Shown here piece after piece: positions 4,287-22,232 of a stretch of 24,097 bases of DNA (within the stretch, counting starts at the first letter, position 1; the number at the start of each line of letters is the position of its first letter). This DNA is from Armatimonadia bacterium (GTDB lineage: Bacteria; Armatimonadota; Zipacnadia; Zipacnadales; UBA11051), in NCBI GenBank assembly GCA_039683575.1, contig JBDKRC010000129.1:1-24097 (forward strand), in the 5' to 3' direction. A program made the position numbers and the translations under genes. The notes beneath the pieces are model-generated. The model did not search any database. It was given only the letters and a program-made list of their open reading frames with translations, and was not told the origin of the DNA.

Positions 4287-4336
4287 CGGCCGAGGTGGCG
4301 TGGAGAGAGCCCTAAAGGCCAATTGGTTGTATTCCG

Positions 4337-4366: not shown

Positions 4367-4368
4367 TC

Positions 4369-7113
4369 ATGTTCTGGCCCCGGTTGGTCCTCTCGCTACT
4401 TGGTCTGTTTGGTTGGGCAATGGGCGCCGTACAGGCACAGCAGCCGCCGCTGCAACTGCAGTTTGTGCGCTGTGCCAACACCTTCTATCGCGATGAGAGG
4501 GTGCGTATTGGCGTGGTCTCGTCGGGGACGCGGCAGACGGTTACGTACCAGGTGACGGACTTCTGGCGACGGACGGTGCGGCGGGGATCATTCCCGGTGG
4601 GGGCGGAGCAGCCGGTAACGCTGGACCTGGCAGAGCCGGGAACGGGGTGGTACCGGCTGGTGCTGCAGCATCCGGAGGGGGTGCTGGAGGACACTTTCTG
4701 CGTGCTGCCGAGGCCGTACGAAGACCCGGGGAACTACAACCTGTTTGGGCTGTGCCCGGACGGCGGGTGCACTGAGGACAATATGGAGCCAGCGGCACAG
4801 ATGGGGGTGCGAGTGGCGCGGCAGACGGTTCCGTGGCCGCAGGTACAACTCAAGCGCGATGAGTGGCGGGTGAGCTTTCTTGATGAGTCATACCGGGCGA
4901 GCAGCAAGTACGGCATCCAGTTGATGCTGATTCTGGGCTACACGCCGGCGTGGGTGGCGGAGAAGCCCATCAACTATCTCGATTCCTGGGTGGAGGCCGC
5001 TCCCTTCACGTGGCATCCGAAGGAGTCGAACGAATTCGGGCGGTATCTGGACGCGGTGACTGCCTACGCGGCAGAGAGGAGCGTCACCTGGCCGAGCGCG
5101 GCGGTGTTGCCGGAGGCGGGTGCAGGGACGCTGCGGCAGCAGTTGCCGTGGGCGCATAGCTGGGAGATGTGGAACGAAGCGGACATCATGTTCTACGTCG
5201 GGGATTGGAACCGTTACCTTGATCTGTTGCACATGGCCTGGGCCGCGGGGCGGCGGGACCTGCCGGACGTGCCGATGATCTACGGCGGGTCCACAGGAAA
5301 CTGGCATGCCATGGGGGTGACGGCGTCAGGTTCGGGCAGGTACTGTTTCGACTATGGGTCGTTGCACACCGGGGGCGATCTGGAGGACTGTCTGCGCGTG
5401 TGGTATGGCGGGGCGCAGCAAATACCGTGGGTGGTGGGGACGCCGCGGGAGACGATGCACACGGAATGCTATGCGCAGGGACGGCGGGGGACGGTGAACT
5501 ACCCCGACTATAACGAGACGCCGGGGGAGCTGCTCAGGACATATCTGGTGCTGAAGGCGTGGCGGGAGGCGGGGTTTTTCCGATCCGGAATTCTGGGAGG
5601 GTTTATCTGGCAGCCGGGGGGGATGTGTCCGGGGACGACGCTGCTGCATCGCCAGCCTGACGGGAGTCTGTCGCCTTCGCCGCTGTACCCGGCGTTCGCG
5701 TGCGCGCGGAAGCTGCTCTCGGACGCGACGGAAGTCGGGCCGGTGAGCCTGGGGAGCCGCGTGACGGCGCATGTGTTCCTGAAGCACGGAAAGGTGATGC
5801 TGGCGGCGTGGTCGGATGACGGGGCCCTGAGCCGGGTGTATCTGGAACCGGGCGCGGTGCGGGTGGATGCGATGGGGCAGGAGCACTCGCTGAACGATCT
5901 GAGCTATACCACGCGGGCGCTGACGGCTGAGCCGACGGTTCTCATCGGCGTGAAAGCCAAGTACCTTGATGAGGCCATGCGGCGGCGGTTTGGGCTGCTT
6001 GCAGATACGGCGTATGGCACCCCCCAGACGAATCCGGCGTGTACGGTTTGGTATGCACGGCCGCTATATGTGGATCTGGGTGACCTGGTGGGGCCCTCGG
6101 GGGGGAAGGAGTTCAGGCAGCGGGTGGAGGCGGCGGCGCGAAGACTGGGCCTGGACGGGGCCGGTAGCGTGGAGGGTGTGCTGAGGGCCCAGCTAGACTG
6201 CTACAAGCTGATGGGGGAGATCGTGGAGCGGTGTCCGGTGGGCAAGGAGGTTCCGCCGGCGGCGGCGGACGCGCTGTGGCGGCTGGCGCGCATTGGTGAG
6301 TGGCTCGGGGAGATTGCCGATGATCGCAGCGCACTGTGGGGAAACTCGCGGACAAGCGAACTCGAGCGGTCGCAGCTAGCCAGGCGGCTCAATCAGGCCA
6401 GAGCGAGGATCGGAGTGCTGTACAAGGCGTCTGATCTGCCGGTGGCGGACCAGCTCCTGCGGCGGGCGCAACGGCAGCTGTGGCAGGTACAGCAGTACCG
6501 GCGGCGGGGCACGTACCAGGCGGTCCTGCACAAGATATACATCGCCGAGCGGCTGATGCGGGTGGAGATGCCAGTGGTGCTGCGGGTTGTGCCAATGGTT
6601 GACTTCACCACAGGGCGGTGCTTGCGCAAGGCGCGGCTACTGGAGCCGGGCCCGCAAGTGCTCAATGCGTGGGTCTACAACTACCTGGAAGAGCCGGTGT
6701 CGGGGACGCTACGGCTGAAACTGCCGACGGGATGGGTGCCGGAAGACCCGGAGGTGCGGTTCACGGCGCAGCCCGGGCAGCCGTCGGCAATGGTGCCGGT
6801 GCGGGTGACCGTGTCGGAGGACCCGAAACCGTGGGCTGAGCTCTGGAGCTTCACCATGGACGGGTTCATCAAGTTGGGGCTGCCGGCGACGCTCAACGAC
6901 CGGCCGCTGATTGAGGTTGAGGGTAGTCTGGACAATGGGGAGCGGTTCTCGCCGATGGGGTACTATGTGAACACGGGGCGCTGGCTGGATGACCCGACGC
7001 TGCAGACGGCATCGCGGCGGAAGACGATGGATTCGGCGCAAGCGAAGCTGGCGCTGCCAGAGGCGGTGCGGAGGGTCCAGGCTGAGGTGGCGCGTCGGGT
7101 GGTGGGGAGGTAG
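4369..7113 (+). CDS. Secreted multidomain protein with a clan GH-A-like glycoside hydrolase domain (GH39/GH5-like)
   Basis: Signal peptide MFWPRLVLSLLGLFGWAMGAVQA; WEMWNEAD (candidate acid/base Glu) and MHTECY (candidate nucleophile); ILGYTPAW; C-terminal Ig/NEW3-like LRLKLPTGW. ORF-track start 4108 overlaps the upstream gene, so ATG 4369 is used. Confidence 0.7.
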   Translation: MFWPRLVLSLLGLFGWAMGAVQAQQPPLQLQFVRCANTFYRDERVRIGVVSSGTRQTVTYQVTDFWRRTVRRGSFPVGAEQPVTLDLAEPGTGWYRLVLQHPEGVLEDTFCVLPRPYEDPGNYNLFGLCPDGGCTEDNMEPAAQMGVRVARQTVPWPQVQLKRDEWRVSFLDESYRASSKYGIQLMLILGYTPAWVAEKPINYLDSWVEAAPFTWHPKESNEFGRYLDAVTAYAAERSVTWPSAAVLPEAGAGTLRQQLPWAHSWEMWNEADIMFYVGDWNRYLDLLHMAWAAGRRDLPDVPMIYGGSTGNWHAMGVTASGSGRYCFDYGSLHTGGDLEDCLRVWYGGAQQIPWVVGTPRETMHTECYAQGRRGTVNYPDYNETPGELLRTYLVLKAWREAGFFRSGILGGFIWQPGGMCPGTTLLHRQPDGSLSPSPLYPAFACARKLLSDATEVGPVSLGSRVTAHVFLKHGKVMLAAWSDDGALSRVYLEPGAVRVDAMGQEHSLNDLSYTTRALTAEPTVLIGVKAKYLDEAMRRRFGLLADTAYGTPQTNPACTVWYARPLYVDLGDLVGPSGGKEFRQRVEAAARRLGLDGAGSVEGVLRAQLDCYKLMGEIVERCPVGKEVPPAAADALWRLARIGEWLGEIADDRSALWGNSRTSELERSQLARRLNQARARIGVLYKASDLPVADQLLRRAQRQLWQVQQYRRRGTYQAVLHKIYIAERLMRVEMPVVLRVVPMVDFTTGRCLRKARLLEPGPQVLNAWVYNYLEEPVSGTLRLKLPTGWVPEDPEVRFTAQPGQPSAMVPVRVTVSEDPKPWAELWSFTMDGFIKLGLPATLNDRPLIEVEGSLDNGERFSPMGYYVNTGRWLDDPTLQTASRRKTMDSAQAKLALPEAVRRVQAEVARRVVGR

Positions 7114-7132
7114 GGCTATTGGCGGCGGGGGC

Positions 7133-7160
7133 GTGGGTGCGGGATGCACCCACCTACGCG
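7133..7160 (-). repeat. Single GTAG-type REP copy between convergent genes
   Basis: Minus strand CGCGTAGGTGGGTGCATCCCGCACCCAC, one mismatch from CGCGTAGGTGGGTGCGTCCCGCACCCAC at 22465. Confidence 0.85.
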
Positions 7161-7199
7161 GGAAGGGGCGAGCGGCCTCCCGCCCCACCGTTGCCCTCG

Positions 7200-7595
7200 C
7201 TAGACGACGCCTTCGGGGAAGGCTTCGTGTCCGGCCATTACTTCGTGGATGGCTTCCTTGACGCGCTCGAAGGGCTCGTCCTTTAGTACGTACCCCATTC
7301 CGCCCGCGGCCTTGAAGAGCATCATTATGTAGCTGTCGGCGTGCATTGAGAAGGCAATCACCCGGGCGTCAGGGTGTCGCTCTATGATGATGCGGGTGGC
7401 CTCGGTGCCGCTGATGTCGGCCATGCTGATGTCCATGAGCACGACATCGGGCTTGAGGTCCTCGACGCGCTCAATGGCCTCGGCGGCGGTGGAGGCTTCA
7501 CCGACGAGTTCGAGATCGGGCTCGCGCTCGAACAGCAGCCGCATGCCCTCGCGAATAACCTTGTGATCATCTGCCAGGACGATTCTGATGCTCAT
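7200..7595 (-). CDS. Single-domain response regulator (NarL-type receiver, no HTH)
   Basis: IRIVLADDH, PDVVLMDISM (phospho-Asp), IAFSMH, GYVLKD. Ends at 131 aa where a LuxR HTH would normally follow. Confidence 0.9.
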   Translation of the reverse strand: MSIRIVLADDHKVIREGMRLLFEREPDLELVGEASTAAEAIERVEDLKPDVVLMDISMADISGTEATRIIIERHPDARVIAFSMHADSYIMMLFKAAGGMGYVLKDEPFERVKEAIHEVMAGHEAFPEGVV

Positions 7596-7636
7596 CTTTC
7601 CCTCTCACAGGCTGTGATGGTTGCGGCCGTTCACCC

Positions 7637-8320
7637 CTACAGCGACGGGCCACCACGTGCCACAGCGGCCTTGGCATGGGCGGTCATGAGGGCGTCATCG
7701 CCGGCAACCTCGCTCATGCGCTCGGCAGTGATGGCCAGGCGGGCGCCGATCACATGGCAATGCGTCCACTCGCTCTTTGTCAGCAGGCGCGGAGCTTTGG
7801 GATGGCTGCGGTGATCGGGGCCGAGAACGAAGCTCTGCTCGTAAGTGGTCGCCAGGTTCGGCGCTGCCTGGGGTATGCCGATCATGATGAAGCCGAGCAG
7901 TGACAGCGGCGCCCACATTGTGAATTTCGTGAGTTCCTGGCCGCTTTCCCCGACGTGGGTAGCGGTGAAGGTTGCAGCAGGCTTGTTAAATAGTTCCCCG
8001 TTGCGGCGCACGCGAAACAGGGAGTCGATGAAGTCCTTCATCTCGGCTGAGGCGCTGGCATAGATCGCGGGTGTGCCAAAGGCGGCGCCGTCACACTTGA
8101 GAAGCTCGGTGGAATCGGCCAGAGCATATTCCTTGCGGCAGCGCTCATCAAGCATGCGCCGCAGCGGGTCTTCGAGGACCTCGCCCAGTTTGTGCTCCAG
8201 AGGCGGGACATAGGCGAGGATGGGCTCGCCGCCGTACTCCTTGACGCCGTCGCCGATGGCGCGCGCCATGAGTTCAACTTCACCGGTAGCGTCGGCAAAG
8301 CAGATATAAATGCTGGCCAC
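7637..8320 (-). CDS. Flavodoxin-fold WrbA-like protein (divergent)
   Basis: MARAIGDGV, CDGAAFGTP, MKDFID, LFNKPAATFT, GQELT follow the WrbA layout. GTG start with GAGGAGG RBS. Confidence 0.75.
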   Translation of the reverse strand: MASIYICFADATGEVELMARAIGDGVKEYGGEPILAYVPPLEHKLGEVLEDPLRRMLDERCRKEYALADSTELLKCDGAAFGTPAIYASASAEMKDFIDSLFRVRRNGELFNKPAATFTATHVGESGQELTKFTMWAPLSLLGFIMIGIPQAAPNLATTYEQSFVLGPDHRSHPKAPRLLTKSEWTHCHVIGARLAITAERMSEVAGDDALMTAHAKAAVARGGPSL

Positions 8321-8447
8321 TGCCGCCTCCTCACTAACATGTTTTCTCGTTGCTGAGGACTGTATTTTTGGGGGGGATGTTCAGAGGGGGAGGCAGGCGT
8401 CAGGGATCACGTTGCAGGGCTCGGGGAACGGCAACTGAGACGGAAAT

Positions 8448-8482
8448 GACACAGGCGACGGGGTTGACCCGTCGCCTGTGTC
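8448..8482 (-). terminator. Hairpin, probable terminator of the DegT gene
   Basis: GACACAGGCGACGGG-gttga-CCCGTCGCCTGTGTC, 15-bp perfect stem about 20 nt after the stop codon; only a short U tract (ATTT). Confidence 0.65.
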
Positions 8483-8503
8483 GTCTGTAGCGTGAGCGGG
8501 GGC

Positions 8504-9760
8504 TTAGCGGGTGATGGCCTGGGTGGCCTGGGCGTCTTCGCCCTCGCGGTAGGTGGTCTCGCCGGCGGCGATGCGGCGGGTGGCGGTGGCCACGGCCGCG
8601 GAGATGTACTCGTTGTCGTGGTGGGACATCTGCGGGTGCATCGGCACGCAGAAGAGGCGCGCGGCGATGAGCTCGGACTTGGGCAGGTTCTGGCCCTGCG
8701 TGTGCTCTGCGATGAAGGGCACGGTGGTGTGACAGGGCGGGTTGGCTACTACGCTGGAGACCTGGTAGTCTTCCCAGAGCATGCGCATGAGTTGGTCGCG
8801 CTTTGCGCTGGCCCAGTCCTCAGGAACGAGGATGGTGTACAGGTAGTAGGTGTGCTTGACCAGGTCGTTCTCGTACGGCAAGGTCAGCTCGGGCACGTCC
8901 TTGAGCAGTTCGGTGCGGGCGATGGCGACAGCGCGCCGCTCGGCGATCATCTTGTCGAGCTTGCGAAGTTGCACGATGCCAACGGCGGCCTGGACCTTGG
9001 TCATCTTGTAGTTGCTGCCCCAGCCGCCGCCCTGCCAGCCGAACTGGCGCAGGCCGCGCAGACGGTTGGCCAACTCGGGATCTTCCACAGTAACGCCGCC
9101 ACCCTCACCGAGAGTGGTCATGAGTTTCTGGGTGTGGAACGACAGGACGCTCATCCAGGCGCCGGCGGTGTTCTTCCTGCCCTTGTATTCGCCGCCCATG
9201 CAGCGGGCCACGTCGCCGATGAACTTGGCGGGGCCATACTTGGGGTGCGGGCGAGCTTCGGCGATGGCCTGGTACTCGTCAATGTGGGCTGAGTAGCCAT
9301 TCATGTGGGTGACCATGATGGCGCGGGTGCGCTCGGTCAGCTTGGCTTCGACGTCGGCGACGTCGGCGCAGAGGGTGCGGGGATCGATTTCGCACACAAC
9401 AAGCTTCGCGCGCTGGCCGATGACGGCCAGCATGGCTGCCTTGAAGTTGACGGAGGGGACGATGACCTCGTCCTCGGGCGACAGATCGAGGCACATCAGG
9501 GTCATGTCCAGGCCGGCGCCGGCGCCGTTGATGGTCACGCAGTCGGCGGTGCCGCAGTACTTGGCCAGGGCAGCCTCAAACTCCTCGATCTCGGGGCAGA
9601 TGAAGCCGAAGCCCTTGGTGGGGTCCATGGAATCGCGAATGGTGCGATTGATGACTTCGAGTTCCTCTTCGCCATAGTAGCTGCCAAGCAGCGGCTCATT
9701 GGGCCAGGCAATATCCAGGCCTCCGGAAGCCAGAATCTTCTCACAGGTCGATGCATCCAT
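8504..9760 (-). CDS. DegT/DnrJ/EryC1/StrS-family PLP-dependent aminotransferase
   Basis: EFEAALAKYCG, EDEVIVPS, SFHTQKLMTTLGEGG (PLP lysine), GSNYKM, RLFCVPMHPQM. ATG 9760 is better spaced from GAGGAGG than TTG 9769. Confidence 0.93.
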   Translation of the reverse strand: MDASTCEKILASGGLDIAWPNEPLLGSYYGEEELEVINRTIRDSMDPTKGFGFICPEIEEFEAALAKYCGTADCVTINGAGAGLDMTLMCLDLSPEDEVIVPSVNFKAAMLAVIGQRAKLVVCEIDPRTLCADVADVEAKLTERTRAIMVTHMNGYSAHIDEYQAIAEARPHPKYGPAKFIGDVARCMGGEYKGRKNTAGAWMSVLSFHTQKLMTTLGEGGGVTVEDPELANRLRGLRQFGWQGGGWGSNYKMTKVQAAVGIVQLRKLDKMIAERRAVAIARTELLKDVPELTLPYENDLVKHTYYLYTILVPEDWASAKRDQLMRMLWEDYQVSSVVANPPCHTTVPFIAEHTQGQNLPKSELIAARLFCVPMHPQMSHHDNEYISAAVATATRRIAAGETTYREGEDAQATQAITR

Positions 9761-11236: not shown

Positions 11237-11884
11237 ATGCCAGACAATATCGAGTTTGTAAGAAATGTGAGCGATCTATCAACAGACGAGGGCTTTCAGT
11301 TCGAATTCTACTGCGACCGATGCAACAACGGGTTCCGGACGCCCTTCAAGGCCTCGGTGTCTGGGAAGGTAGCAGGCGCGCTGGAGGCCGCGAGCAGCGT
11401 CTTCGGCGGCATCTTCAATACCGCGGCCGATTTGACCAACCGCGCCCGCTCGGCTACCTGGGAGCAGGCGCATGATAAGGCTTACGAGGCGTCGGTGGGC
11501 GAGCTGAAGCAGAGCTTCTCACAATGCCCGCATTGCCAGTCATGGGTGTGCCGCAAGAGCTGCTGGAACGAGAAGCGCGGGCTGTGCAAGGAATGCGCGC
11601 CGGACATGGGTGTGGAGATGAGCGCGGCGCAGGCGGCGAAGTCGCGGGAAGAAGTCTGGGCGCACGCGAAGATGAGTGAGGATGACAAGAAGCTGGCCGA
11701 AAGCAACTGGCGCGAGACCATTGTGGCACAGTGCCCCAAGTGTGAAGCGACTCTGGAGAACAACGCGAAATTCTGCCCGGAATGCGGTCACAACCTCAAG
11801 GCCGCGGCCCATTGCAGCGAATGCGGTGAGAAGCTGAAGGAAGGGGCCAAGTTCTGCTCGGGGTGTGGGGCGAAGGTGGAGTAG
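11237..11884 (+). CDS. Zinc-ribbon protein (double zinc ribbon C-terminus)
   Basis: AGGAGG RBS; multiple CxxC pairs (CDRC, CPHC, CKEC, CPKC, CPEC, CSEC, CSGC) and AKFCPECG/AKFCSGCG repeats. Confidence 0.9.
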   Translation: MPDNIEFVRNVSDLSTDEGFQFEFYCDRCNNGFRTPFKASVSGKVAGALEAASSVFGGIFNTAADLTNRARSATWEQAHDKAYEASVGELKQSFSQCPHCQSWVCRKSCWNEKRGLCKECAPDMGVEMSAAQAAKSREEVWAHAKMSEDDKKLAESNWRETIVAQCPKCEATLENNAKFCPECGHNLKAAAHCSECGEKLKEGAKFCSGCGAKVE

Positions 11885-11906
11885 GAAACTAAGAGGGCGG
11901 TGGCTC

Positions 11907-14168
11907 ATGTCTCGGTGTCTGATCTGCCTGTTCTGCATGTTGCTCTTGACCTCGGCGTTTGCCGAGGTCATTGCTTCTGTGGATTTCGAGGGCTGGACGG
12001 CCCCTCTGCCGCAGACCTACGGCGATGGGCCGCAGGTGCTGATGAACGGCGTGGAGGCGGCTGCCGGGCGGACCGGGGCCGGACTGCGGCTGAAGCTGCA
12101 GTATGGGGCCGAGACGCCCAAGGGGCTCAGCTACTACAGTATCAACTTCCCCCAGCCGGTACCCATTGTTCCGCAGATGCAGGAAGCCTCGTTTTGGGTG
12201 AAGACGAATGTGCCCGTGGAGATCAAGGTGCCGATCAGCCCCTTTGGGTTCATCTACCATGGGCCGGGCGTCAAGCCGTCGGCGGAGTGGCAGCAGGTCG
12301 CGGTCAGAGACCTGTATGGCGAGATGAAGAAGTGGTGCCTGCGGGGGGACAAGGACGCTGGGGAGGGGTTCATCAGCGGGCTCATCCTGGCGGTGCGGAC
12401 GACGCCGAACGTGCTGGCGGACATCGCTGTGGACGGTGTGACAGTCACCGCCGCTGAAGGAGCTTTGAAGATGATGCAGGAGGAAGCACGCAAGCGGCGG
12501 TTTGCGCGGGTGAATGCCAGCGTGGTGACGTTGCCGCTATCGGAGGAGGGTAGGTCGCTGCCGTACGTGCTGGACCGGCTCGATGAGGCGGGCGTGGTGG
12601 GCAGTGACATCGTGCTGCTGCCGATGGAGTGCGTGCAGACGGTAGGGGAGGCCATTCCGGGGCCGATCAGTCAGGCCATCGCGGCGAAAGCCAAAGAGTA
12701 CGGAATGTACGTGGTGGGGAACCTGCGGGAGCAGGACGGGGAGAAGACCTATGTGACCTCGTTCTTGTGCAACCGGCAGGGCGAGATCGTGGGCAAGTAC
12801 CGCAAGTCGCACAAGATGCCGGATGAGGCTATGGACCTGGGCGACGATCTGCCGGTCTTCAGCACCGACTTCGGGAAGATTGCCATGAAGATCGGGAGTG
12901 ACCGGTACTTCGCGGACCTTGACCACGTGTACACGGCCAAGGGCGCGCGGATGATCCTGTGGAGCCAGGAGCGGGAGCCGATGGAGGATGAGTGGCTCCA
13001 GGACTACCCGCAGGAGGGGCGGGCGCAGGACTACGGCGTGTTCATCGCGTGCGCGCGCTATAGCAACGCGGGCACGGGGTGGATCACCAACTCCATGCCG
13101 ACCTACCGGGGGATGCCGATTGGGCGGTCATATATCGTCAACCGCGAGGGGATGCGGGTGGCGTGTACGCAGCGGAAGGGTAGTGTGGCGACGGCGGTGA
13201 TTCCCAAGGCCGAGCTGAGCCAGCCGGGACGGGGGGCTATTGATCCGAAGTACCCAGGCTTCAAGGTGCTCGTGGAGCCGGTGAAGGTCCCGGCTCCGGG
13301 GCAGTGGGCCAGGCGCAAAGTGCGCCTGGCGGCCATCGAGAACCACGTCGGGATCGAGGACCTGCTCGCCAAGATCGACCAGTGCGGGCAGATGGGCGTG
13401 GACCTGGTCTGCACGTATGAGATGGTATGGATACCCATACACGGCGACACGCCAGCGCCGGAGCAGGTCGCGAAGGACACCGCGCAGGCGGCTGAGAACC
13501 TGCGGCGGATCGCCGAGAAGGCCGCTCAGCACAGGATGTACGTTCTGGTGGCCGGCGTGATAGAGAAGCGGGAACTGAACGAAGCAATCCTGTACGGCCG
13601 CAATGGGCGGGAAGTGGCGCGCTACCGCAAGTGTGTAAGCACCTACCCTGAGCAGGTCTGCGGTACCAGGGCCAACCTTCTGGAGACGGACTTCGGACGG
13701 ATTGGGGTGCGAATCTGTGCGGACAACGCGCTGGTGGAGCTTGACCGGTGCTATGGGGTGCAGGACGCGGATATCATGTTCGACCTGACACAGGACTGGG
13801 GGCCGGATGCCATCCATCGCAACCTGCGCAATATCAGCCGGTGCATGGACGGGCAGTTCTTCCGGGTTGAGTGCACGCACAAGACAAGCGAGCCGCAGCA
13901 CCGCAGCGCGATTGTTGACCCGTCAGGGGTGCCTGTGGCGCAGAGCGAGTACCTGGGGAACGGGATCGTGACGGCGGTCGTGGACCTGGACAACGACCGG
14001 CCGCGACGGTATTCGCGGGAGTGGAAGGTGCGGGAAGTGGGGGGCTATCTGCCGGAATACCAGGACGCGCAGATGCCGACGGAGTACAACGACCTGCGGG
14101 AAACGATCATCAGGCAGCGAAGGCCGGAGCTCTATGGTGCGCTTTGGCCGGAGGAGAAGAAGCCGTGA
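11907..14168 (+). CDS. Secreted protein with an N-terminal beta-sandwich/CBM-like region and two carbon-nitrogen hydrolase (nitrilase-fold) domains
   Basis: Signal peptide ending TSAFA. Domain 1: LLPME, GKYRKSH, TDFGKIAMKIGSD. Domain 2: CTYE, ARYRK, TDFGRIGVRICAD. C-terminal RRPELY. Confidence 0.85.
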   Translation: MSRCLICLFCMLLLTSAFAEVIASVDFEGWTAPLPQTYGDGPQVLMNGVEAAAGRTGAGLRLKLQYGAETPKGLSYYSINFPQPVPIVPQMQEASFWVKTNVPVEIKVPISPFGFIYHGPGVKPSAEWQQVAVRDLYGEMKKWCLRGDKDAGEGFISGLILAVRTTPNVLADIAVDGVTVTAAEGALKMMQEEARKRRFARVNASVVTLPLSEEGRSLPYVLDRLDEAGVVGSDIVLLPMECVQTVGEAIPGPISQAIAAKAKEYGMYVVGNLREQDGEKTYVTSFLCNRQGEIVGKYRKSHKMPDEAMDLGDDLPVFSTDFGKIAMKIGSDRYFADLDHVYTAKGARMILWSQEREPMEDEWLQDYPQEGRAQDYGVFIACARYSNAGTGWITNSMPTYRGMPIGRSYIVNREGMRVACTQRKGSVATAVIPKAELSQPGRGAIDPKYPGFKVLVEPVKVPAPGQWARRKVRLAAIENHVGIEDLLAKIDQCGQMGVDLVCTYEMVWIPIHGDTPAPEQVAKDTAQAAENLRRIAEKAAQHRMYVLVAGVIEKRELNEAILYGRNGREVARYRKCVSTYPEQVCGTRANLLETDFGRIGVRICADNALVELDRCYGVQDADIMFDLTQDWGPDAIHRNLRNISRCMDGQFFRVECTHKTSEPQHRSAIVDPSGVPVAQSEYLGNGIVTAVVDLDNDRPRRYSREWKVREVGGYLPEYQDAQMPTEYNDLRETIIRQRRPELYGALWPEEKKP

Positions 14169-14172
14169 CGGG

Positions 14173-14922
14173 CTAGACGGTCACGCCCAGATGACCTTCG
14201 CATGGCATCCCAATCGCCTCGAGCACCACTTGCTCGAGGCGCTTTACTTTCTGCGGGTCGGTTGGCGGGGGGTCTTCGAGGGGGGAGCGCAGGCCGAGTT
14301 CCTGCCACTTCTCCAGGCCCATGGTGTGGTAGGGCAGTAGCTCCACGCGTTGCAGCGACGGAACGTCGCGCAGCAGGGCGGCAAGCGCGAGAACCTGCTC
14401 CTCGGTGTCATTCAGGCCGGGGACGATGACCTGGCGGACCCACAGCGGGATGCGCTGCTGTCTGACATAGTCGAGGAACGCCAGGGGCTGCTCCAGGCTG
14501 CCGCCGGTCAGCGCGTGGTACTGGGCCGGGTCGGTGTGCTTGAGGTCCAGAATGACGAGGTCGGCGTGTTGCAGAGCCTCTTTCACCGCATCATTGAGAC
14601 AGGCGCCGCTGGTGTCTACTGCAGTATGGATGCCAACATCCTGGCAGCGACGGAGTAGCTCCGCGACGAACTGTGGCTGCGCCAGCGGCTCGCCGCCAGA
14701 GAGCGTGACGCCGCCATCGCGACCGAAGTACGGCCGCGAACGCTGGACGCGCGCGATGATGTCGTCAGCGGTCATCTCGGTGCCCTGCGCGGCCCACGTG
14801 TCGGGGTTGTGGCAGTAGGCACAGCGCAGCGGGCAGCCAGAGAAGAAGACCACGGTCCGCAAGCCGGGCCCGTCGAGGGCACCGAGGGTTTCGATTGAGT
14901 GGATTTGTGCGTTCATGGACAT
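14173..14922 (-). CDS. pflA: Pyruvate formate-lyase activating enzyme (radical SAM)
   Basis: IHSIETLGALDGPGLRTVVFFSGCPLRCAYCHNPDTW, GGVTLSGGEP, ELLPYHTMG. Start at ATG 14922 or 14916; the ORF-track extension runs through a repeat region. Confidence 0.97.
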   Translation of the reverse strand: MSMNAQIHSIETLGALDGPGLRTVVFFSGCPLRCAYCHNPDTWAAQGTEMTADDIIARVQRSRPYFGRDGGVTLSGGEPLAQPQFVAELLRRCQDVGIHTAVDTSGACLNDAVKEALQHADLVILDLKHTDPAQYHALTGGSLEQPLAFLDYVRQQRIPLWVRQVIVPGLNDTEEQVLALAALLRDVPSLQRVELLPYHTMGLEKWQELGLRSPLEDPPPTDPQKVKRLEQVVLEAIGMPCEGHLGVTV

Positions 14923-14948
14923 AGCTAGAGGCCAAAAACAGTTGAAGG

Positions 14949-15140
14949 AAAATGGGGACTGACACCACTTTCGCAACCTAGCCCTCGCAACCCAATAAGC
15001 TCTTTGCGAAAATGGTGTCTGTCCCCGTTTTCCGGTGGTGGCGGGGATGCAAAAGCAGCAACGGGGACAGACCCCAATTTCGCCTGATGATTTGGTTTGT
15101 GATGGAGCCTGGCGAGCGAAATCAGGGTCAGTCCCCGTTT
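14949..15140. repeat. Two inverted-repeat doublets of a GGGGAC(A/T)GAC(A/C)CC element
   Basis: AAAATGGGGACTGACACCACTTTCGCAA (14949-14976) pairs with TTGCGAAAATGGTGTCTGTCCCCGTTTT (15004-15031). AACGGGGACAGACCCCAATTTCGC (about 15060-15083) pairs with GCGAAATCAGGGTCAGTCCCCGTT (about 15116-15139). Confidence 0.85.
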
Positions 15141-15160
15141 CTGTTGCCGGGCCGAACTGC

Positions 15161-17392
15161 TCACAGCGCCTCATGGAAAGTGCGGGCGATTACTTCCTCC
15201 TGCTGCTCGCGACTGAGCTTGTGGAAGTTCACCGCGTACCCAGACACGCGAATCGTCAACTGCGGGTGCTTCTCCGGGTGGTCCATGGCCTCGCGCAGGA
15301 CGTCCTGATTGATGACGTTCACGTTGAGGTGATGGCCGGCCTGCAAGAAGTATCCGTCGAGGAGGCTCACCAGGTTTTGCTTACGGTCGGGGAGAGTCCG
15401 CCCGAGAGTGCCGGGCGTCACGCCGAAAGTGCACGAGACGCCGTCAAGGCAGCATTCGTAGGGTATTTTGGCGACTGAGTTGAGCGAGGCCAGGGCGCCG
15501 CAGTGGTCGCGGTGATGCAGGGGATTTGCGCCTGGCGCGAAGGGGGCGCCGGCCGCGCGGCCATCGGGCGTCATGCCGGTCTTGTGGCCGTAGACGACGT
15601 TGGAGGTGATGGTCAGGACCGAGAGCGTCGGCTTGGCGTCACGATAGGTGGCGTGGCTGGCGAGACCGGCTTGGAAATCGCGGAGTTGCTCGGCAGCGAT
15701 GGCGTCCACGCGGTCGTCGTCGTTGCCAAACTGCGGGTAGTCGCCCTGCACATCGAAATCGGTGATCAGGCCGCGGTCGTCGCGGCGGGCGGTGACCTGG
15801 GCATACTTGATGGCGCTCAGCGAGTCGGCCAGCACCGACAGCCCGGCGACGCCGAAGGCCATGAGACGCTCAACTTCGCTGTCATGCAACGCCATCTGGA
15901 GCTTCTCATAGGCATACTTGTCGTGCATGTAGTGGATGACGTTCATCGTGTTGACGTAGAGTTCCGTCAGCCAGTCTCGGTAGAAGACAAAGCGCTCAAG
16001 CACCTGCTCGTAGTCGAGAGCCCCGTCAGCAATGGGGGGCAGCTCAGGGCCGACCTGCTGGCCGCTGATCTCGTCACGGCCGCCGTTGAGGGCCATGAGC
16101 AGGACCTTGGGGAGGTTGCAGCGGGCGCCAAAGAACTGCATCTGCTTGCCAATGCGCATGGCCGAGACGCAGCAGGCGATGCCGTAGTCGTCGCCATAGA
16201 GCGGGCGCATCAGGTCGTCGTTCTCATACTGGATGGCACCGGTCTCGATGGAGACGCGGGCCACATACTGCTTGAAGGCGTCGGGCAGGTCCTGCGACCA
16301 GAGGATGGTCAGATTAGGCTCGGGCGCCGACCCCAGGTTGTAGAGCGTGTGCAGCATCCGGAAGCTGGTGCGGGACACGAGCGGTCGGCCATCTTCGCCG
16401 ACGCCGCCGACAGCCTCGGTGATCCACATCGGGTCCCCGGCAAACAGTTCGTTGTACTCAGGCGTGCGAAGCTGGCGGGCGAGACGGAGCTTGAGGACGA
16501 AGTCGTCAATGAGCTCCTGCGCGCCGGCCTCGTCGAGAGCGCCCTCGGCGAGATCCCGCTGCAGATAGATATCCAGGAAAGTGCCGACGCGGCCGAGAGA
16601 CATCGCCGCGCCGTTCTGCTCTTTGATCGCGCCGAGATAGGCGAAGTAGAGCCACTGGATGGCCTCGCGGGCGTTTGTGGCCGGGCCGGAGATGTTGTGC
16701 CCGTAGGTGGCGGCCAGGGCCTTGAGCTTCTCGAGAAAGTCTATCTGCTTGTAGATCTCTTCGCTCAAGCGGATATTCTCTTCGGTCATGGGGCGGCGGC
16801 CGAGCTCGCGCTTGTCCGCCTGCTTGGCGGCGATCAGCGCGTCCACGCCATATAGCGCCACGCGGCGGTAGTCGCCGATGATCCGCCCGCGCCCATACGC
16901 ATCAGGCAGCCCCGTGATGACGCCACTGCGGCGGGCGGCCTTCATCTCGTCGGTGTACACGCGGAAGACGCCGTCGTTGTGGGTAGTGCGGAAAGCGAAG
17001 GCCTCCTCGACCCGGTAGTCGAGCTTGTAGCCGTAGGAGGCGCAGGCGTCCCGGGCCATGCGGATGCCGCCGAAGGGATTGACGCTGCGGCGCAGCGGGC
17101 GCGCGGTCTGCAGGCCCACGATCAGCTCGCGATCCTGGTCGAGGTAGCCGGCGGGATAGGTCAGCAGGGAGGATACGGTGGTGGTGTCGATGTCCAGCAC
17201 GCCGCCGCTGAGCGCTTCGAGTTCGAAGTAGCGCTCAGCCTTGTCGCGCAGGGCAACAGTGCGGTCGGTGGGTGGGGCGAGGAAGCCCTCGTCGCCCGTG
17301 TAGGGGGTATAGTTGCGCTGGATGAAATCGCGAACGTTGATCTCATCCTGCCAGGTACCGTCATTGAAGTTGCGCCAGCCGCTGTTGGGCAT
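15161..17392 (-). CDS. pflB: Formate C-acetyltransferase (pyruvate formate-lyase)
   Basis: [22 protein letters not shown], active-site IACCVS, glycyl-radical loop [18 protein letters not shown]. Confidence 0.98.
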
Positions 17393-17446
17393 GTCCGTAC
17401 CTCCGTAGAAGTATTGAAGATCCCATGACAGCGGGGCCCAGAAACG

Positions 17447-17483
17447 AAAAACGCCCGGGCAGCGATGTCATGGTGCCCAGGCG
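17447..17483 (-). terminator. Riboswitch-coupled intrinsic terminator
   Basis: Minus strand CGCCTGGGCA-ccatgacatcgc-TGCCCGGGCG-TTTTT; the 5' arm is the 3' end of the aptamer. Confidence 0.88.
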
Positions 17484-17544
17484 GTCGGCGCGTACTACAG
17501 CCCTGATTCCCGTGGTGAACTCCACTATCCGCCAGTCTCAGGGC
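17474..17544 (-). ncRNA. ZMP/ZTP (pfl) riboswitch
   Basis: Minus strand GCCCTGA-GACTGGCGGATA-GTGG-AGTTCA-CCAC-GGGAA-TCAGGGC, linker, then CGCCGACCGCCTGGGCA. Shows P1, P2, GGCGG/CCGCC pseudoknot and CCUGGGCA 3' motif, in the pflB leader. Confidence 0.93.
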
Positions 17545-17564
17545 ACGCTTTTTGTTGTGTGACT

Positions 17565-17593
17565 AATATACTCTGTTGGGACGGGAATGTCAA
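17565..17593 (-). promoter_or_regulatory. Sigma70-type promoter of pflB-pflA
   Basis: Minus strand TTGACA (17593-17588), 17-nt spacer, TATATT (17570-17565), just upstream of the riboswitch. Confidence 0.85.
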
Positions 17594-17991
17594 CGGCCCG
17601 CGGTACGGGATAGCGCAATGGCCCGTAGTTGAGCCATCTGCTGTCGCGTCGTCTCCTCCTGGAGAAAGGTGGCGATCGCCTGCTCTAATTCAGCGCGGTC
17701 ATTGCATGGGACCAGACTATCCCGGTAGAAATCCAGTTGAACCGGGAAGCCTCCCAACGGCACGTACGCTTTGAACAATACGTGCTCGAAGGTGCCGTCC
17801 GGCAGACGCAGAACGAGCCGCCATTGCTGCCCCATGTTGACAACGTAGCGTGGTTCTGCAACAACCTCAATGGGCTGGAGCGCTTTCTGCAACTGGGCCG
17901 CAAGATCAGTCAGGAATGTGACTGCGGGGTTGGCTTCGCTCGAAGCCTCCCGCATCTGCTGTTGCACAAGATGAGTGAAGTCTATGGACAT
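17590..17991 (-). CDS. Hypothetical protein, 133 aa, coupled to the EEP nuclease
   Basis: Starts 5 nt after the EEP stop, AAAGG upstream, globular-looking sequence, no family recognised. Confidence 0.75.
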   Translation of the reverse strand: MSIDFTHLVQQQMREASSEANPAVTFLTDLAAQLQKALQPIEVVAEPRYVVNMGQQWRLVLRLPDGTFEHVLFKAYVPLGGFPVQLDFYRDSLVPCNDRAELEQAIATFLQEETTRQQMAQLRAIALSRTAGR

Positions 17992-17996
17992 GTGGG

Positions 17997-18974
17997 TCAG
18001 CCTTTCGCGATGAAACTCGCCAGCAGAGGCAGGTGGTCAGAACAGCCAGTGCTCGTCTTCGCTTCCGGATCATACTCCCATTTGATAGGAACGATGCGTC
18101 CGGTCCGCGCGGTGTACCGTGCGATCAGGTCGTCATGATATAGACATACTGAGCGTTCCTGGAGTTGCAGGGAATCCCCGCGCAGCAGCCCTCCCGAGAC
18201 GAGAAGCTGGTCGAATATGCAGTTGCCGTCGGGGCCAAAGCTCGTCGTGGGACGAGGCTGTCTGTAGTCATCAGCAATGGCCTCCTCGTAGTGGTCAGGC
18301 TCATCCAGCCACCGCCACATGGGGTTATAGAGGTGTGCGGGAGAGCGTCGCCAGCGAAGCGGCGTGCTGAAATGGCGGCTGCTGCGAAGCCTCGTCTGGC
18401 CGAATGGCGCCTCGAACGGCTCGGCGTTGAAGTCACCGACGAGGATAGCATCGGTTATCTTGTCCTCACCCCCCAGGCGATCCCCAAGGGCTTCTGCCGT
18501 ATCCCGGCGATCAGCTTCGTCATCAACGCCCCCCAGTTTCATGCGGCTCTTCCAATGGTTTATGATCAGTAAGAAAGGCATTCCATTTGCCCGGACGCGC
18601 ATGTGCAATAGGACATACCTGAGACGCGCTCCGCGGTTGGCGGGATACACTTCCACTGAATCGGGACCCAACACCTTGGTGGCATCCCAAAGCAGGCCAA
18701 TGCCTGCATCGGTGACCTGTTGCGAGCCTTCCCAGACCACGCTGTACCGGCCGGACCACGCGTGCTCTCCCAGTTCCTTGACCAGTCGTTCGGAGTTCAC
18801 CTCTGCGCACGCAAATATGTCTGGACCCTTGCCGTCAAACAGGAGGCCAAGCGTCCTCGCCAGCACTCCTCGCTTAAGCTCTATCTCCCGCTCAGACTGG
18901 GGACCTCGTGCTGATGATCCTGGCTCGTAGTAGTTGCAGAGATTCCAGAAAGCGAAGCTAATCCTATCATCCAT
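17997..18974 (-). CDS. Endonuclease/exonuclease/phosphatase (EEP, DNase I-like) family protein
   Basis: FWNLCN, PDIFACAEV, NHWKSR, VGDFN, LYNPMW, FDQ, SDHLP: full catalytic set, no signal peptide. Confidence 0.92.
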   Translation of the reverse strand: MDDRISFAFWNLCNYYEPGSSARGPQSEREIELKRGVLARTLGLLFDGKGPDIFACAEVNSERLVKELGEHAWSGRYSVVWEGSQQVTDAGIGLLWDATKVLGPDSVEVYPANRGARLRYVLLHMRVRANGMPFLLIINHWKSRMKLGGVDDEADRRDTAEALGDRLGGEDKITDAILVGDFNAEPFEAPFGQTRLRSSRHFSTPLRWRRSPAHLYNPMWRWLDEPDHYEEAIADDYRQPRPTTSFGPDGNCIFDQLLVSGGLLRGDSLQLQERSVCLYHDDLIARYTARTGRIVPIKWEYDPEAKTSTGCSDHLPLLASFIAKG

Positions 18975-19043
18975 GCCCTATTCACACGGCCTCTCTCCGG
19001 CGTTGTTCGACGCACATTCCGCGCCTGTGCGGGAGTCATCTTC

Positions 19044-20681
19044 TCATGCTGGTGTACCAGGATCAGGCGGTACCGGTGCCGCTGGCTCGGCCGGCTTGGC
19101 CGGCGGAGGGGTGGTCGTGGGAGTCGCGGCGTGGGCCTGCACCCGCTGGCTCAGCATGTCCGCCAGATCCAGCCCCAGCAGCGCCTTGACCTGCTCGTTG
19201 AACTGGATGAACTGGCCCGGCACCTGGCTGATTACCCGGTCGATTGGGCCCTTGCCGTCGCCGCTGCCGCCCACGTCCACGATCGAGATATTGTCGATGT
19301 TGGACAGGCCGGTGCCGATGGCATTCATCGGGGCGCCCATGGCGCGGATGATCTCGGGATAGCGCTCAACCAGAAGCTGGATGACGGCGGCATCGCCGTA
19401 GCGGTCCCAGGCCTCGGCCTTGGACTGCATACCCTCGGCTTCCGCGAGCATCTGGGCGCGGATGGCGTCAGCTTCGGCCAGACCCTTGGCGCGGATCGCC
19501 TCGGCCTCACCCTCACCAGTGGCGCGGGCGCGGGAGCCCTCACCGGCGCCAGCCTTCTCAAGCTGGGCCTGTTCGGCCTCGGCGGCGGCGATGCGGGCAT
19601 CGCGCTCACCCTGAGCGCGGATGATGGCGGACTGCCGGGCGCCCTCGGCCTCGACGATGGCGGCCTGGCGGCGGGCTTCAGCGTCAATGACGGCCTTCTT
19701 CTGGTCGGCTTCGGCGGGACGGATGCGGGTAGCCACCAGTTCCTGCTCCATGCGCGCGGCTTCCTGCTCTGCCACAGCGATCTGGGCCTTGCGCTGCACC
19801 TCAAGGATGCGTACCTGCTGGACTTCCACTTCCTGGCGGGCCTGGGCCTCGGCCAATGGCCCCGCCTGATCGGCGCGGGCACGGGCGGCGTTGGCGTCTG
19901 CATCGAACTGCGCTACATTGATGCGCTTGTTCTTGTCAGCCTCGGCGATACCCACGTCGGCAAGTATCTTGGCAGTCTCACCGACCTGGCGGGCCTGGGA
20001 TGATTTGATGTCAGCGTCGCGCTGGGCCTCAGCCATGCCGATCTGGGCGTCGCGGCGGACTTCAGCGGTACGCTTCTGGCCCAGAGCCTCGATGTAGCCG
20101 TGCTCGTCGGTGATTTCGCGGATGGGCATGTTGTCAATGACCAGGCCCATGGTTTCGAGATCGCGGGCGGATTGCTCGACGAGGCGCTCGGAGAAGGCCG
20201 CGCGGTTGCGGATCAGGTCCTCAACGGTCATCGTGCCGATGATGGCGCGCAGGTGGCCCTCCATCATCTGCTGGATGAGCTCGTGAATTTGCGGCTGACC
20301 CATCGTGAGAAAACGCTCGGCGGCGGCGCGCTGGAGGGCTTCGGTGGAGCCGATCTTGATGTTGGCGAGGGATTCAGCCTTGACCGGGACGCCGTCAATG
20401 GTAACCGACCCCACGGTCGTGACGGGGATGGCCATGACTTCCAGCGAGAGCCATTCGACGGAGACGACGATGGGCCACTTGACGAAGCCACCGCCCTGGA
20501 CGAGGCGGAAGCCGACGGCATTGCCTTCAGCGTCACGAACGCGGCGACCGAAGACGACAGCGACGCGGTTTGGGGGAACGCGGACGTAGTAGTATGCAAT
20601 GATGCCCATCAGGGCAAATAGTAGAACTACCAACCCGCCGATGTAGACCGCCGTCATTCCTAGATCCAACATGGGTGTCAC
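19044..20681 (-). CDS. Flotillin-family SPFH domain membrane protein
   Basis: N-terminal TM helix, VRVPPNRVAVVFG, AAAERFL, EGHLRAIIGTMTVEDL, AEA-rich coiled coil, IDNISIVD. Start is GTG 20681 or ATG 20672. Confidence 0.95.
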   Translation of the reverse strand: MTPMLDLGMTAVYIGGLVVLLFALMGIIAYYYVRVPPNRVAVVFGRRVRDAEGNAVGFRLVQGGGFVKWPIVVSVEWLSLEVMAIPVTTVGSVTIDGVPVKAESLANIKIGSTEALQRAAAERFLTMGQPQIHELIQQMMEGHLRAIIGTMTVEDLIRNRAAFSERLVEQSARDLETMGLVIDNMPIREITDEHGYIEALGQKRTAEVRRDAQIGMAEAQRDADIKSSQARQVGETAKILADVGIAEADKNKRINVAQFDADANAARARADQAGPLAEAQARQEVEVQQVRILEVQRKAQIAVAEQEAARMEQELVATRIRPAEADQKKAVIDAEARRQAAIVEAEGARQSAIIRAQGERDARIAAAEAEQAQLEKAGAGEGSRARATGEGEAEAIRAKGLAEADAIRAQMLAEAEGMQSKAEAWDRYGDAAVIQLLVERYPEIIRAMGAPMNAIGTGLSNIDNISIVDVGGSGDGKGPIDRVISQVPGQFIQFNEQVKALLGLDLADMLSQRVQAHAATPTTTPPPAKPAEPAAPVPPDPGTPA

Positions 20682-20777
20682 CCTTCCTCCCGGCCACCGT
20701 AGCGGCCCGTAGATGAGACGTAGCTAGTAGCAGCGGCGGTGCGATAGCCGCCGCCGGATGATATGGGCTGTTTGCGA

Positions 20778-21359
20778 TCAGGAAGTGACGTGGCGGACGA
20801 CGAGGGTGCCACCGAGTTCCTCGGTCACAATTACGCGGCAACCCTCTGCGAGGGGCTCCGAACCTTCCGCACGTGCGAGAGCTTTGAGGGGCACGCCCCG
20901 GGCGTAGATTCTGATCTCGCCCACGCCATTTTGGGGGATGGTGGTCAGGACAACGCCCTCCTGGCCGATCAGATGCATGGTCGAGATGGTGCTGGTGGCT
21001 TCCTGGTTGTACAGGAAGCGGCTGAAGCGGAAGACGATGATGGCGATGAGGAGGCCCACAGCGGCGCCGAAGGGGGCGCTGAAGATGCCCCATTTGAGCA
21101 TGTCGTAGCCAATGAGACCACCCCAGCCCCAGCCGCCGATGAAACCGAGGATGGTGCGCAGGCTTATGTAGCCGGGCCCCTCGGACTGGTGCCCCTCGGC
21201 TGAGTGGCCGGCGTCCACATGGCCGTGGAGGTCAATGACGTGCCCGGCTTCGAGGCCGCCGTGGCCGAAGTCGTGACCGCCGCCCAGCAGGAGCAGGATA
21301 AGCGTGATGAGGGTACCGCCGATGGCCATCGACCAGTAAATGGTGGGTAGTAGTTCCAT
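20778..21359 (-). CDS. NfeD-like (YuaF/YqiJ-type) membrane protein
   Basis: TM helix, His/Gly-rich loop, SLRTILGFIGGWGWGGL, OB-fold C-terminus LIGQEGVVLTTIPQNGVGEI. Directly upstream of flotillin; GGAGGGG RBS. Confidence 0.92.
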   Translation of the reverse strand: MELLPTIYWSMAIGGTLITLILLLLGGGHDFGHGGLEAGHVIDLHGHVDAGHSAEGHQSEGPGYISLRTILGFIGGWGWGGLIGYDMLKWGIFSAPFGAAVGLLIAIIVFRFSRFLYNQEATSTISTMHLIGQEGVVLTTIPQNGVGEIRIYARGVPLKALARAEGSEPLAEGCRVIVTEELGGTLVVRHVTS

Positions 21360-21551
21360 CGCTCCCCCTCCTTGAGTGGACCGGGAATGTCCCGGCTGCG
21401 CATAGAGGCCTAGTCATGATTCACGGCAGACGCAGCGATTCCTTCTTTTCTGTTGCAGGAAAGTGTACTTCAGGCAGGCAGTGGCGCAGGATTGTTGGGG
21501 TGGGGGCACGAATCATCGAGGAGTGACGTGATTTCGAGAGGGGGTATGGTC

Positions 21552-22232
21552 ATGGCGGACTGGGAAAGCGTGTTGCGCAAGTTGCTGGGGTTGGATGTCA
21601 ATGACCCCAGGCGCGGTCAACATGAACTGCAGGAGATGCTGGAGAGCTTTCTGGAGGAGGCCCGGCGGAAGCGGGCAGAGATCAACGCTGAGCTGGGGCA
21701 GATGCGCGCCGAGGCAATAGTGCTGGGCAGGCGGCGGAAAGCGAGCACGGAGCAGGTGCGCAAGTGGGGGGAGAGGGCAGAGGCTGCCCTGCGCGCGGGG
21801 GATGAGCAGCAGGCGCGGGAGCATCTGCGGCGCCAGCGGAGCTTCGAGGATGTGACGGCTGATTGGGAGCGGCAGGCTTCGGCGCAGGAGCAGGGCGTGC
21901 AGGCGCTGGAACAGGCGAGCAGGCAGCTTGCGAGCGGCATCGCGGAGGCGGAGACGCGGCTGGTGGCGCTGGTCTCGCGGCACAAGGCGGCGACGGCGGC
22001 GGCGAAGGTCGAGGGCATCCTGCAGCGCATGGGCGAGCCCACCGACCCCCACCCAGGCTACAAGGTGGCGGAGGTCTCGGTAGACGCCGAGGAAGCCTGG
22101 GCAAAGGCGCTGGCGGAGACCAGCGCGGCAACGGTGGAAAAGCGGCTGCGCGCGCTGGAGGATGGGGAGCAGGAGGCGGAGATTGAGAGGCGGCTGGCGG
22201 AGATGCGGGAGCGGGTGGAGGGGAAGAGATAG
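21552..22232 (+). CDS. pspA: PspA/IM30-family protein
   Basis: All-helical; KWGERAEAALRAGDEQQAREHLRRQ, C-terminal VEKRLRALE...EIERRLAEMRER. GAGGGG RBS; ATG 21552 or 21546. Confidence 0.85.
   Translation: MADWESVLRKLLGLDVNDPRRGQHELQEMLESFLEEARRKRAEINAELGQMRAEAIVLGRRRKASTEQVRKWGERAEAALRAGDEQQAREHLRRQRSFEDVTADWERQASAQEQGVQALEQASRQLASGIAEAETRLVALVSRHKAATAAAKVEGILQRMGEPTDPHPGYKVAEVSVDAEEAWAKALAETSAATVEKRLRALEDGEQEAEIERRLAEMRERVEGKR

Follow-up and report, generated by a model that had tools for sequence, protein, structure and literature searches.

An EEP-fold enzyme and its small downstream partner form a conserved, mobile gene pair in an Armatimonadia genome: a candidate toxin-antidote cassette

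Two adjacent genes on contig JBDKRC010000129.1 of the Armatimonadia bacterium assembly GCA_039683575.1 encode an endonuclease/exonuclease/phosphatase (EEP)-fold enzyme and, directly downstream, a small protein of an unnamed family (Table 1). Positions 1 to 24,097 of this contig were analyzed, and this whole stretch is referred to as the window. The two genes are a real, conserved unit, and the explanation favored here, with moderate confidence, is a mobile and selfish pair made up of an EEP-fold toxin and its cognate immunity protein or antitoxin. This reading is preferred because of the strict gene order, the apparent coupling of the two genes, their mobility, the intact active site of the enzyme, and, above all, the survival of the small gene where the EEP gene has decayed. 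Toxin-antidote pairs are well known as a kind, and an EEP-fold toxin with an inhibitor from the small family would be a new member of it. An earlier sequence-only reading of the window had described a horizontally acquired nuclease with a small regulator, sensor, or antitoxin, and a possible undescribed defense or toxin-partner system; its conserved, mobile pair and its antitoxin option stand, while a defense island as the general setting does not.

Linkage of the two genes

Scans that started from the EEP protein collected 80 loci from genome contigs and 52 from metagenome contigs. On the genome contigs, all nine close EEP loci (≥175 bits with the clade profile) carry the small gene directly downstream on the same strand, and none of the 71 distant EEP genes (<135 bits) is accompanied by a match to the first small-protein profile at E ≤ 0.01. 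The metagenome contigs gave the same picture with a deeper profile at the same threshold, with the small gene downstream of six of six close EEP genes and 0 of 46 distant ones. The small gene is thus linked to EEP homologs elsewhere, directly downstream of 15 of 15 close homologs from the EEP-first scans, and no close EEP gene was found to have lost it (0 losses in 15 loci). Applied to the 71 distant EEP genes of the genome contigs, the deeper profile produced one weak match, downstream of the enzyme gene at locus L099 (E = 2e-5). Searches from the opposite side, with the small protein first, recovered 13 loci from 9 of the 401 phylum genomes sampled, most with an EEP gene directly upstream.

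The proteins encoded downstream of four distant EEP genes (L040, L042, L045, and L053) are remote homologs of the small family (hhalign probability 96.5%, E = 1e-9, 123 columns), and the record titles for these remote pairs name Sorangium sp. So ce176, Planctomycetaceae SH248, a Roseateles metagenome-assembled genome (MAG), and Alteromonas abrolhosensis. Profile similarity of this kind indicates that the module type extends beyond the close clade, and it fits cognate pairs that diversify together.

The junction between the genes suggests translational coupling. Five nucleotides separate the EEP stop codon from the ATG of the small gene (17991-17989), and a Shine-Dalgarno-like AAAGG lies inside the end of the EEP gene, 9 nt before that ATG, where it may act as the ribosome-binding site of the small gene. 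In two relatives, the stop and start codons of the two genes overlap by 4 nt.

Many spurious open reading frames (ORFs) arise in high-GC genomes, yet there is almost no chance that two unrelated genes merely lie side by side here or that the small ORF is spurious. The same downstream partner accompanies every close EEP gene of the EEP-first scans; an exhaustive profile search of 1.84 billion proteins placed 241 cluster representatives in the small family at E ≤ 1e-3, 189 of them at E ≤ 1e-10; and the small protein folds in an AlphaFold2 (AF2) model, built from a 14-row alignment, with a predicted local distance difference test (pLDDT) score of 90.5. Family size and linkage together refute this alternative.

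One-sided decay of the enzyme gene

The small gene persists where the enzyme gene is damaged or missing. After the removal of four duplicates with identical scores and lengths, 27 unique small-gene loci remained; the small gene is a single intact ORF at all 27, while the EEP gene is intact at 16, disrupted at eight, and absent from three. Of the disrupted copies, one has an in-frame TAG (G038) and two are frameshifted, the second of these in a complete Sorangium genome. Another is reduced to 60 N-terminal residues that abut the small gene, two are truncated, one at the N terminus and one at the C terminus, one is split into four pieces in a draft genome (L039), and one is spread over three frames next to an inserted IS5-like element (L174, on contig G398:C8). 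At L174, an IS5-family element (8609-9575; DUF4096 plus DDE in two frames) with perfect 16-nt terminal inverted repeats sits exactly between the EEP and small genes, and an otherwise 98%-identical contig, G398:C20, lacks the element and has an intact EEP gene.

Where the EEP gene is absent, the small gene is found in different surroundings. At L017 (G034:C66), a tandem repeat array broken by a run of N (3387-3964) replaces the enzyme gene upstream of an intact small gene, and in the close relative G038 the EEP gene with its in-frame TAG occupies that position. At another locus, no EEP gene occurs within 6-8 kb. An EEP-like stretch directly upstream of the orphan small gene of G029 was non-significant (E = 0.4) and was not counted. 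That orphan gene (L016, G029:C368, 5403-6393) adjoins a Fer4_12/radical-SAM activase-like gene, echoing the pfl activase of the window; the resemblance is seen at no other locus and is probably a coincidence. Among the roles that had been offered for the small protein, one-sided decay favors the antitoxin and disfavors the sensor.

The EEP-fold protein

On the evidence of its predicted structure and of profile matches, the upstream protein has an EEP fold and an EEP active site. The AF2 model (pLDDT 82.7) has a four-layer alpha/beta sandwich fold, and Foldseek returned 295 PDB matches at E ≤ 1e-3, with a best value of 1.1e-13, all of those listed being EEP enzymes. A Bacteroides EEP protein (3mpr), Nocturnin, TDP2, and mannosyl-6-phosphatase lead these matches (E ~1e-13), and Nocturnin is also the best PDB match by sequence (2.7e-7). 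Among Pfam families, PF19580 scores above its gathering cut-off (41.4 bits against 27) and PF03372 just below its threshold (23.3 bits against 24.5). The full catalytic set of the superfamily is present (Asn, Glu, Asp-x-Asn, Asp, and Asp-His), as the sequence-only reading had stated, and the invariant columns in an alignment of the protein with 14 relatives include N11, E58, H140, D181, N183, D255, D313, and H314, which we take to be the catalytic residues.

Two better-known types of EEP enzyme were considered and rejected. The absence of resemblance to ExoIII/Xth repair enzymes, which had been argued from the motifs HWKSR and LYNPMW, holds: both motifs occur in the translation, E. coli ExoIII (1ako) ranks only 47th among the Foldseek matches, behind 3mpr, Nocturnin, and TDP2, and it is not among the PDB sequence matches. 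An extracellular nuclease of the ExeM/NucH type is rejected on a score of 22.3 bits with NCBIfam model NF033681, against a curated cut-off of 300. In the model, the first beta strand, which bears the catalytic Asn, begins at residue 4, and all family members start within a few residues of the FWN motif, and there is therefore no room for a signal peptide; none is apparent, in agreement with the earlier assignment to the cytoplasm, as judged from the position of this strand and with no predictor run.

Given such relatives, the enzyme might be an ordinary phosphatase or phosphodiesterase acting on a metabolite, a lipid, or an RNA end, with the small protein as an accessory subunit that helps it fold, sets its specificity, or carries its substrate. 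Among solved structures, the enzyme stands closest to Nocturnin (an NADPH-bound entry), mannosyl-6-phosphatase, TDP2, and CCR4-type nucleases, partnerless cytoplasmic EEP relatives are common in Proteobacteria and Cyanobacteria, and glycosidases and sulfatases lie in many of the neighborhoods. This explanation is nevertheless unlikely, in that no conserved neighbor gene defines a pathway, the scattered cross-phylum distribution and atypical codon composition speak against it, as does the DUF2169/VgrG context of one locus (L035), and it is hard to see why a subunit would stay intact at the 11 of 27 loci that have a broken enzyme gene or none.

The small partner protein

Pfam, NCBIfam, and PADLOC contain no match to the small protein, and a word-indexed homolog search with it returned only itself; its family was recovered by whole-genome searches and the exhaustive hidden Markov model search alone. 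Nearly all members are 120-145 amino acids long. Two members carry C-terminal extensions without a Pfam match, of ~80 residues in L023 (G133, 1501-2124) and ~120 residues in L035 (6504-7289), and P0123 (315 aa) and P0158 (295 aa), among 150 listed representatives, likewise exceed the usual length. As nuclease inhibitors generally are, the family is acidic (median pI 5.0; pI under 6 in 88% of members), which is in keeping with the role proposed for it.

The model consists of two N-terminal helices, a five-stranded antiparallel sheet, and two C-terminal helices, with no Pfam domain and no recognized helix-turn-helix or ribbon-helix-helix. Foldseek found nothing for it at E ≤ 1e-3 in the PDB or in BFVD, where the best match was an uncharacterized Klebsiella phage protein at 6.5e-3. 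A VIA wide search gave a best Z of 7.2 for a Mediator subunit and 6.6 for frataxin/CyaY, all in the noise zone of the tool, and the clusters retrieved from the ESM Atlas were all unnamed, the highest feature score (0.88) falling under the lead threshold of 0.9. One complex prediction of the EEP enzyme with the small protein, made from the two family alignments, scored 0.00, 0.51, and 0.00 in its runs and is counted neither for nor against binding.

Composition, distribution, and mobility

The two genes use more A/T-ending codons than their neighbors, as had been noticed from the sequence, although they are not extreme for the genome. The G+C content at third codon positions (GC3) reaches 0.660 in the EEP gene and 0.657 in its partner, against 0.797-0.855 for the flanking genes and a median of 0.80 over 16 ORFs of the window. 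Genome-wide, the mean is 0.770 with a standard deviation of 0.077 (3299 long ORFs), and 10.4% of ORFs have values of 0.66 or less. The low GC3 of the pair is real, then, at about the tenth percentile, and no extreme outlier. Both genes fall under the neighbor median at 9 of 12 loci, and two of the three remaining loci are situated in mobile or low-GC3 islands.

The pair is present in 1 of 15 genomes of the family, was not found in three congeners (85-96% complete), and is patchy over the order and the phylum, in the 9 of 401 genomes already mentioned. The titles of named records that carry it read Armatimonadetes, Fimbriimonadaceae, Planctomycetaceae, Polyangiaceae, Sorangium cellulosum So0157-2, and Byssovorax cruenta. 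Its neighborhoods are unrelated and include a ribosomal protein operon, IleRS, Pup ligase and proteasome genes, glycosidases, sulfatases, and LpxB, and a tyrosine integrase or transposase adjoins three loci. A conserved link of the pair with pfl or flotillin genes was considered and rejected, since the neighborhoods of the other loci are unrelated. This distribution and the sub-host GC3 support the horizontal acquisition proposed earlier, and vertical conservation, which would speak against it, was not seen.

Comparison with a congener places the cassette at a breakpoint. In genome G002, the homologs of flotillin and of the gene at 11865-14168 of the window lie ~820 nt apart, and in the window that gap is filled by 4.9 kb containing pflA, pflB, the small gene, and the EEP gene. 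This segment is absent from G002 at the flotillin site, and the cassette therefore stands at a synteny breakpoint. G002 keeps an 80%-identical pflB on another contig and has no cassette. No EEP relative was found on viral contigs, a result that says little either way.

Secretion and defense contexts

One locus has the classical layout of a type VI secretion system (T6SS) effector-immunity pair. At L035, in a Polyangiaceae MAG, only 2 nt separate the end of a gene for a 991-aa DUF2169 protein (E = 5e-76) from the start of the EEP gene, which is followed by the small homolog with its 120-aa C-terminal extension. Genes for VgrG, for an M74 peptidase that has a peptidoglycan-binding domain, and for a Tle1-like protein lie on the opposite strand. 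In Agrobacterium, DUF2169 adaptors are described upstream of T6SS toxin-immunity pairs (PMC6945064). EEP families go unmentioned in the main text of a survey of effectors linked to adaptors (PMC7714669). The opposite-strand genes at L035 (7306-12461) run from VgrG through a 207-aa gene of unknown function to the M74 peptidase and a Tle1-like fragment, and resemble another T6SS effector set, oriented convergently to the DUF2169-EEP-small operon.

Defense-type genes accompany about 3 of 12 neighborhoods. At L033, a split type II/III methylase, a restriction-like (Mrr-like) domain, and a 158-aa SIR2-Argonaute-associated fragment (E = 5e-61) lie directly upstream. A mobile or defense islet surrounds the pair there (3228-9255), with a tyrosine integrase directly downstream. 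In Sorangium cellulosum So0157-2 (L036), an AAA_21 or HEC-01A/AriA-like ATPase gene (4403-5545; E = 7e-54), which might be a separate defense gene or a local partner, lies directly upstream of a frameshifted EEP gene, and at L113 a HEC-09 gene is two genes away. Linkage to defense islands, which the sequence-only reading had proposed to check, is thus weak, with none of these genes in the neighborhood of the window itself, and a defense island as the general context is rejected.

These contexts bear on a different role for the pair, a two-component anti-phage system in which the EEP protein would be an effector nuclease and the small protein a sensor or activator that turns it on during infection, as opposed to a standing inhibitor. 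The patchy, mobile distribution, the low GC3, and the defense-type genes beside L033, L036, and L113 are in keeping with such a system. It is quite unlikely all the same: neither protein matches any of the 5027 models of PADLOC-DB 2.0 (2023 library) at E ≤ 1; 9 of 12 neighborhoods, that of the window included, are housekeeping; and there is no reason for a sensor to be kept at 27 of 27 loci while its effector is lost at 11.

Comparison with known systems

Among the papers listed by full-text literature searches, none described an EEP toxin that has its own immunity protein or antitoxin, or an EEP-fold toxin of a toxin-antitoxin system; this and the database results given above agree with the earlier remark that no named system was recognized for the pair. 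The plan of the cassette has several precedents. Colicin E-type nucleases with their Im proteins and barnase with barstar each comprise a nuclease and a small acidic inhibitor encoded directly downstream, which protects the cytoplasm of the producer. The pair, as proposed, would share this plan, but the nuclease folds are unrelated to EEP, and colicins carry receptor and translocation domains where the EEP protein is a bare catalytic domain. Type II toxin-antitoxin systems are alike in being coupled, mobile, and patchy two-gene cassettes in which the antidote outlasts decay of the toxin; they differ in that here the toxin gene would come first and no DNA-binding domain was recognized in the small protein by Pfam or from its model.

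The T6SS DNase effector-immunity pair Tde2-Tdi2 of Agrobacterium, with its DUF2169 adaptor Atu3641, has the same order of adaptor, enzyme, and small protein as L035, which lies by VgrG. As in the EEP pair, the cognate gene is directly downstream and orphan immunity-like copies also occur. The fold of the Tde toxin presumably differs from the EEP fold, the small protein resembles Tdi neither in sequence nor, to a significant degree, in fold, and T6SS genes are missing from 11 of 12 neighborhoods of the EEP pair.

Within the EEP superfamily, the toxin CdtB and the secreted EEP proteins proposed in Liberibacter (PMC8557891) have the same catalytic residue set, but are exported, by a signal peptide or as AB toxins, and act on eukaryotic hosts, in contrast to the cytoplasmic and paired enzyme of the window; they are not known to have an immunity protein. 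PMC8557891 and PMC6653060 deal with secreted or lectin-fused EEP proteins. PF19580 proteins, the best Pfam family for the enzyme, and the EEP domain of ExeM/NucH, to which it has a weak match, are the remaining comparison; the window enzyme differs from ExeM/NucH in having no signal peptide and no accessory domains.

Proposed mechanism and its weight

The two genes are proposed to be a self-contained, horizontally mobile toxin-antidote cassette. The EEP-fold enzyme would be a cytoplasmic phosphodiesterase that harms the cell when free, most likely a DNase acting on nucleic acid. The small acidic protein, translated right after the enzyme from the same message, would bind and block it as an immunity protein or antitoxin, and its conserved face (G48, N52, G54, R74, G81, and D87) is predicted to lie over the active-site cleft of the enzyme. 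In most hosts, including the genome of the window, which have no secretion apparatus, the pair may behave as a module of the addiction or abortive-infection type; in at least one Polyangiaceae lineage, it probably serves as a T6SS cargo effector with its immunity protein.

Several observations weigh against this proposal. Phosphatases and enzymes acting on NADPH or RNA are among the nearest EEP proteins of solved structure, and those named above (Nocturnin, TDP2, and mannosyl-6-phosphatase) are no toxins; by analogy with them, the substrate could be harmless. The next EEP clade (~27% identity; Agrobacterium, Bordetella, and cyanobacteria) also starts at the catalytic strand and has no partner, and a cytoplasmic EEP enzyme of this kind is therefore not necessarily toxic. 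The enzyme is a bare catalytic domain with no N-terminal trafficking domain, T6SS linkage is seen in only 1 of 12 neighborhoods (L035), and the genome of the window (96% complete) has no VipB, VgrG, or DUF2169 match. The fold of the small protein resembles nothing above noise; the TriTu immunity protein (7zhm_D), with a Z of 6.7 over 77 aligned residues, falls in the noise zone.

The decay evidence is also open to objections. With an EEP gene 2.4 times the length of its partner, some asymmetry in decay is expected by chance. Some breaks in draft assemblies and MAGs, that of L039 especially, may be sequencing or assembly errors, and contigs G398:C20 and G398:C8, 97-98.6% identical over 15 kb, may be strain variants and not two loci. 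Loci found through the small gene cannot reveal its loss, which only the 15 EEP-first loci can.

A broader proposal is more tentative: the small protein may found a family of inhibitors for EEP-fold phosphodiesterases, and the pair may be the first bacterial EEP-fold toxin-antidote module, an addiction or abortive-infection cassette that became T6SS cargo in Polyangiaceae and has remote pairs in cultured strains of Sorangium, Planctomycetaceae, and Alteromonas. Hosts of the Armatimonadetes and Planctomycetes type would be its lineages without secretion systems. If the toxin-antidote reading is true, a toxin fold (EEP) and an unrelated inhibitor fold join the bacterial toxin-antidote repertoire, ~240 sequence clusters now annotated as hypothetical gain a name and a testable role, and one cassette serves both as a stand-alone selfish or defense module and as T6SS cargo. 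A protein that inhibits EEP enzymes in nature could also make a useful reagent, as the superfamily contains DNase I, APE1, TDP2, and CCR4 deadenylases. Should the toxin-antidote reading fail, the pair would remain a clear case of an enzyme and a partner that are strictly inherited together.

Locus layout and neighboring genes

Both genes lie on the minus strand between flotillin and the pfl promoter region, and this arrangement, including the 5-nt gap described earlier, is confirmed by the ORFs and the sequence (Table 1). The flotillin gene, which is preceded by an NfeD-like gene, ends 69 nt upstream of the EEP gene. Downstream, ~200 nt with a sigma-70-like site separate the small gene from pflB, which is followed by a radical-SAM activase gene, the two pfl genes together spanning 14173-17392. 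This site is a consensus match only (one found against 0.6 expected in shuffles); it is probably the promoter of pflB and the downstream boundary of the cassette.

Table 1. Coordinates of the gene pair and associated features in the window
Feature	Position	Strand	Description
EEP-fold enzyme gene	17997..18974	minus	ORF with ATG start, 325 aa; proposed toxin, cytoplasmic, all catalytic residues kept
Small partner gene	17590..17991	minus	ORF with ATG start, 133 aa, unnamed family; proposed immunity protein or antitoxin
Junction of EEP and small genes	17992..18005	minus	AAAGG at 18005-18001, TGA at 17999-17997, spacer 17996-17992
Sigma-70-like promoter site	17565..17593	minus	TTGACA-17-TATATT, 11 of 12 consensus matches; overlaps the stop of the small gene
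Genome-specific segment relative to congener G002	14169..19043		tblastn of window proteins on G002:C27
pflB	15161-17392	minus	PFL-like plus Gly_radical, 743 aa; downstream of the small gene
Flotillin (SPFH) gene	19044-20681	minus	Band_7 plus Flot; upstream of the EEP gene

The other genes of the window are housekeeping in character and encode a dehydroquinate synthase II, an AraC regulator, a DegT aminotransferase, a TPR protein, a CN-hydrolase, PspA, and a fucosidase; the idea that the window itself is a defense island was rejected on this account. The NfeD-like and flotillin (SPFH) genes and a divergent PspA/IM30 gene form a membrane-stress cluster (19044-22232) that is kept in congeners G002, G003, and G006. 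A 1001-aa ORF at 4108-7113 has a host-like GC3 of 0.80 and no Pfam match, and the start listed for the 333-aa ORF of the radical-SAM activase is probably too far upstream.

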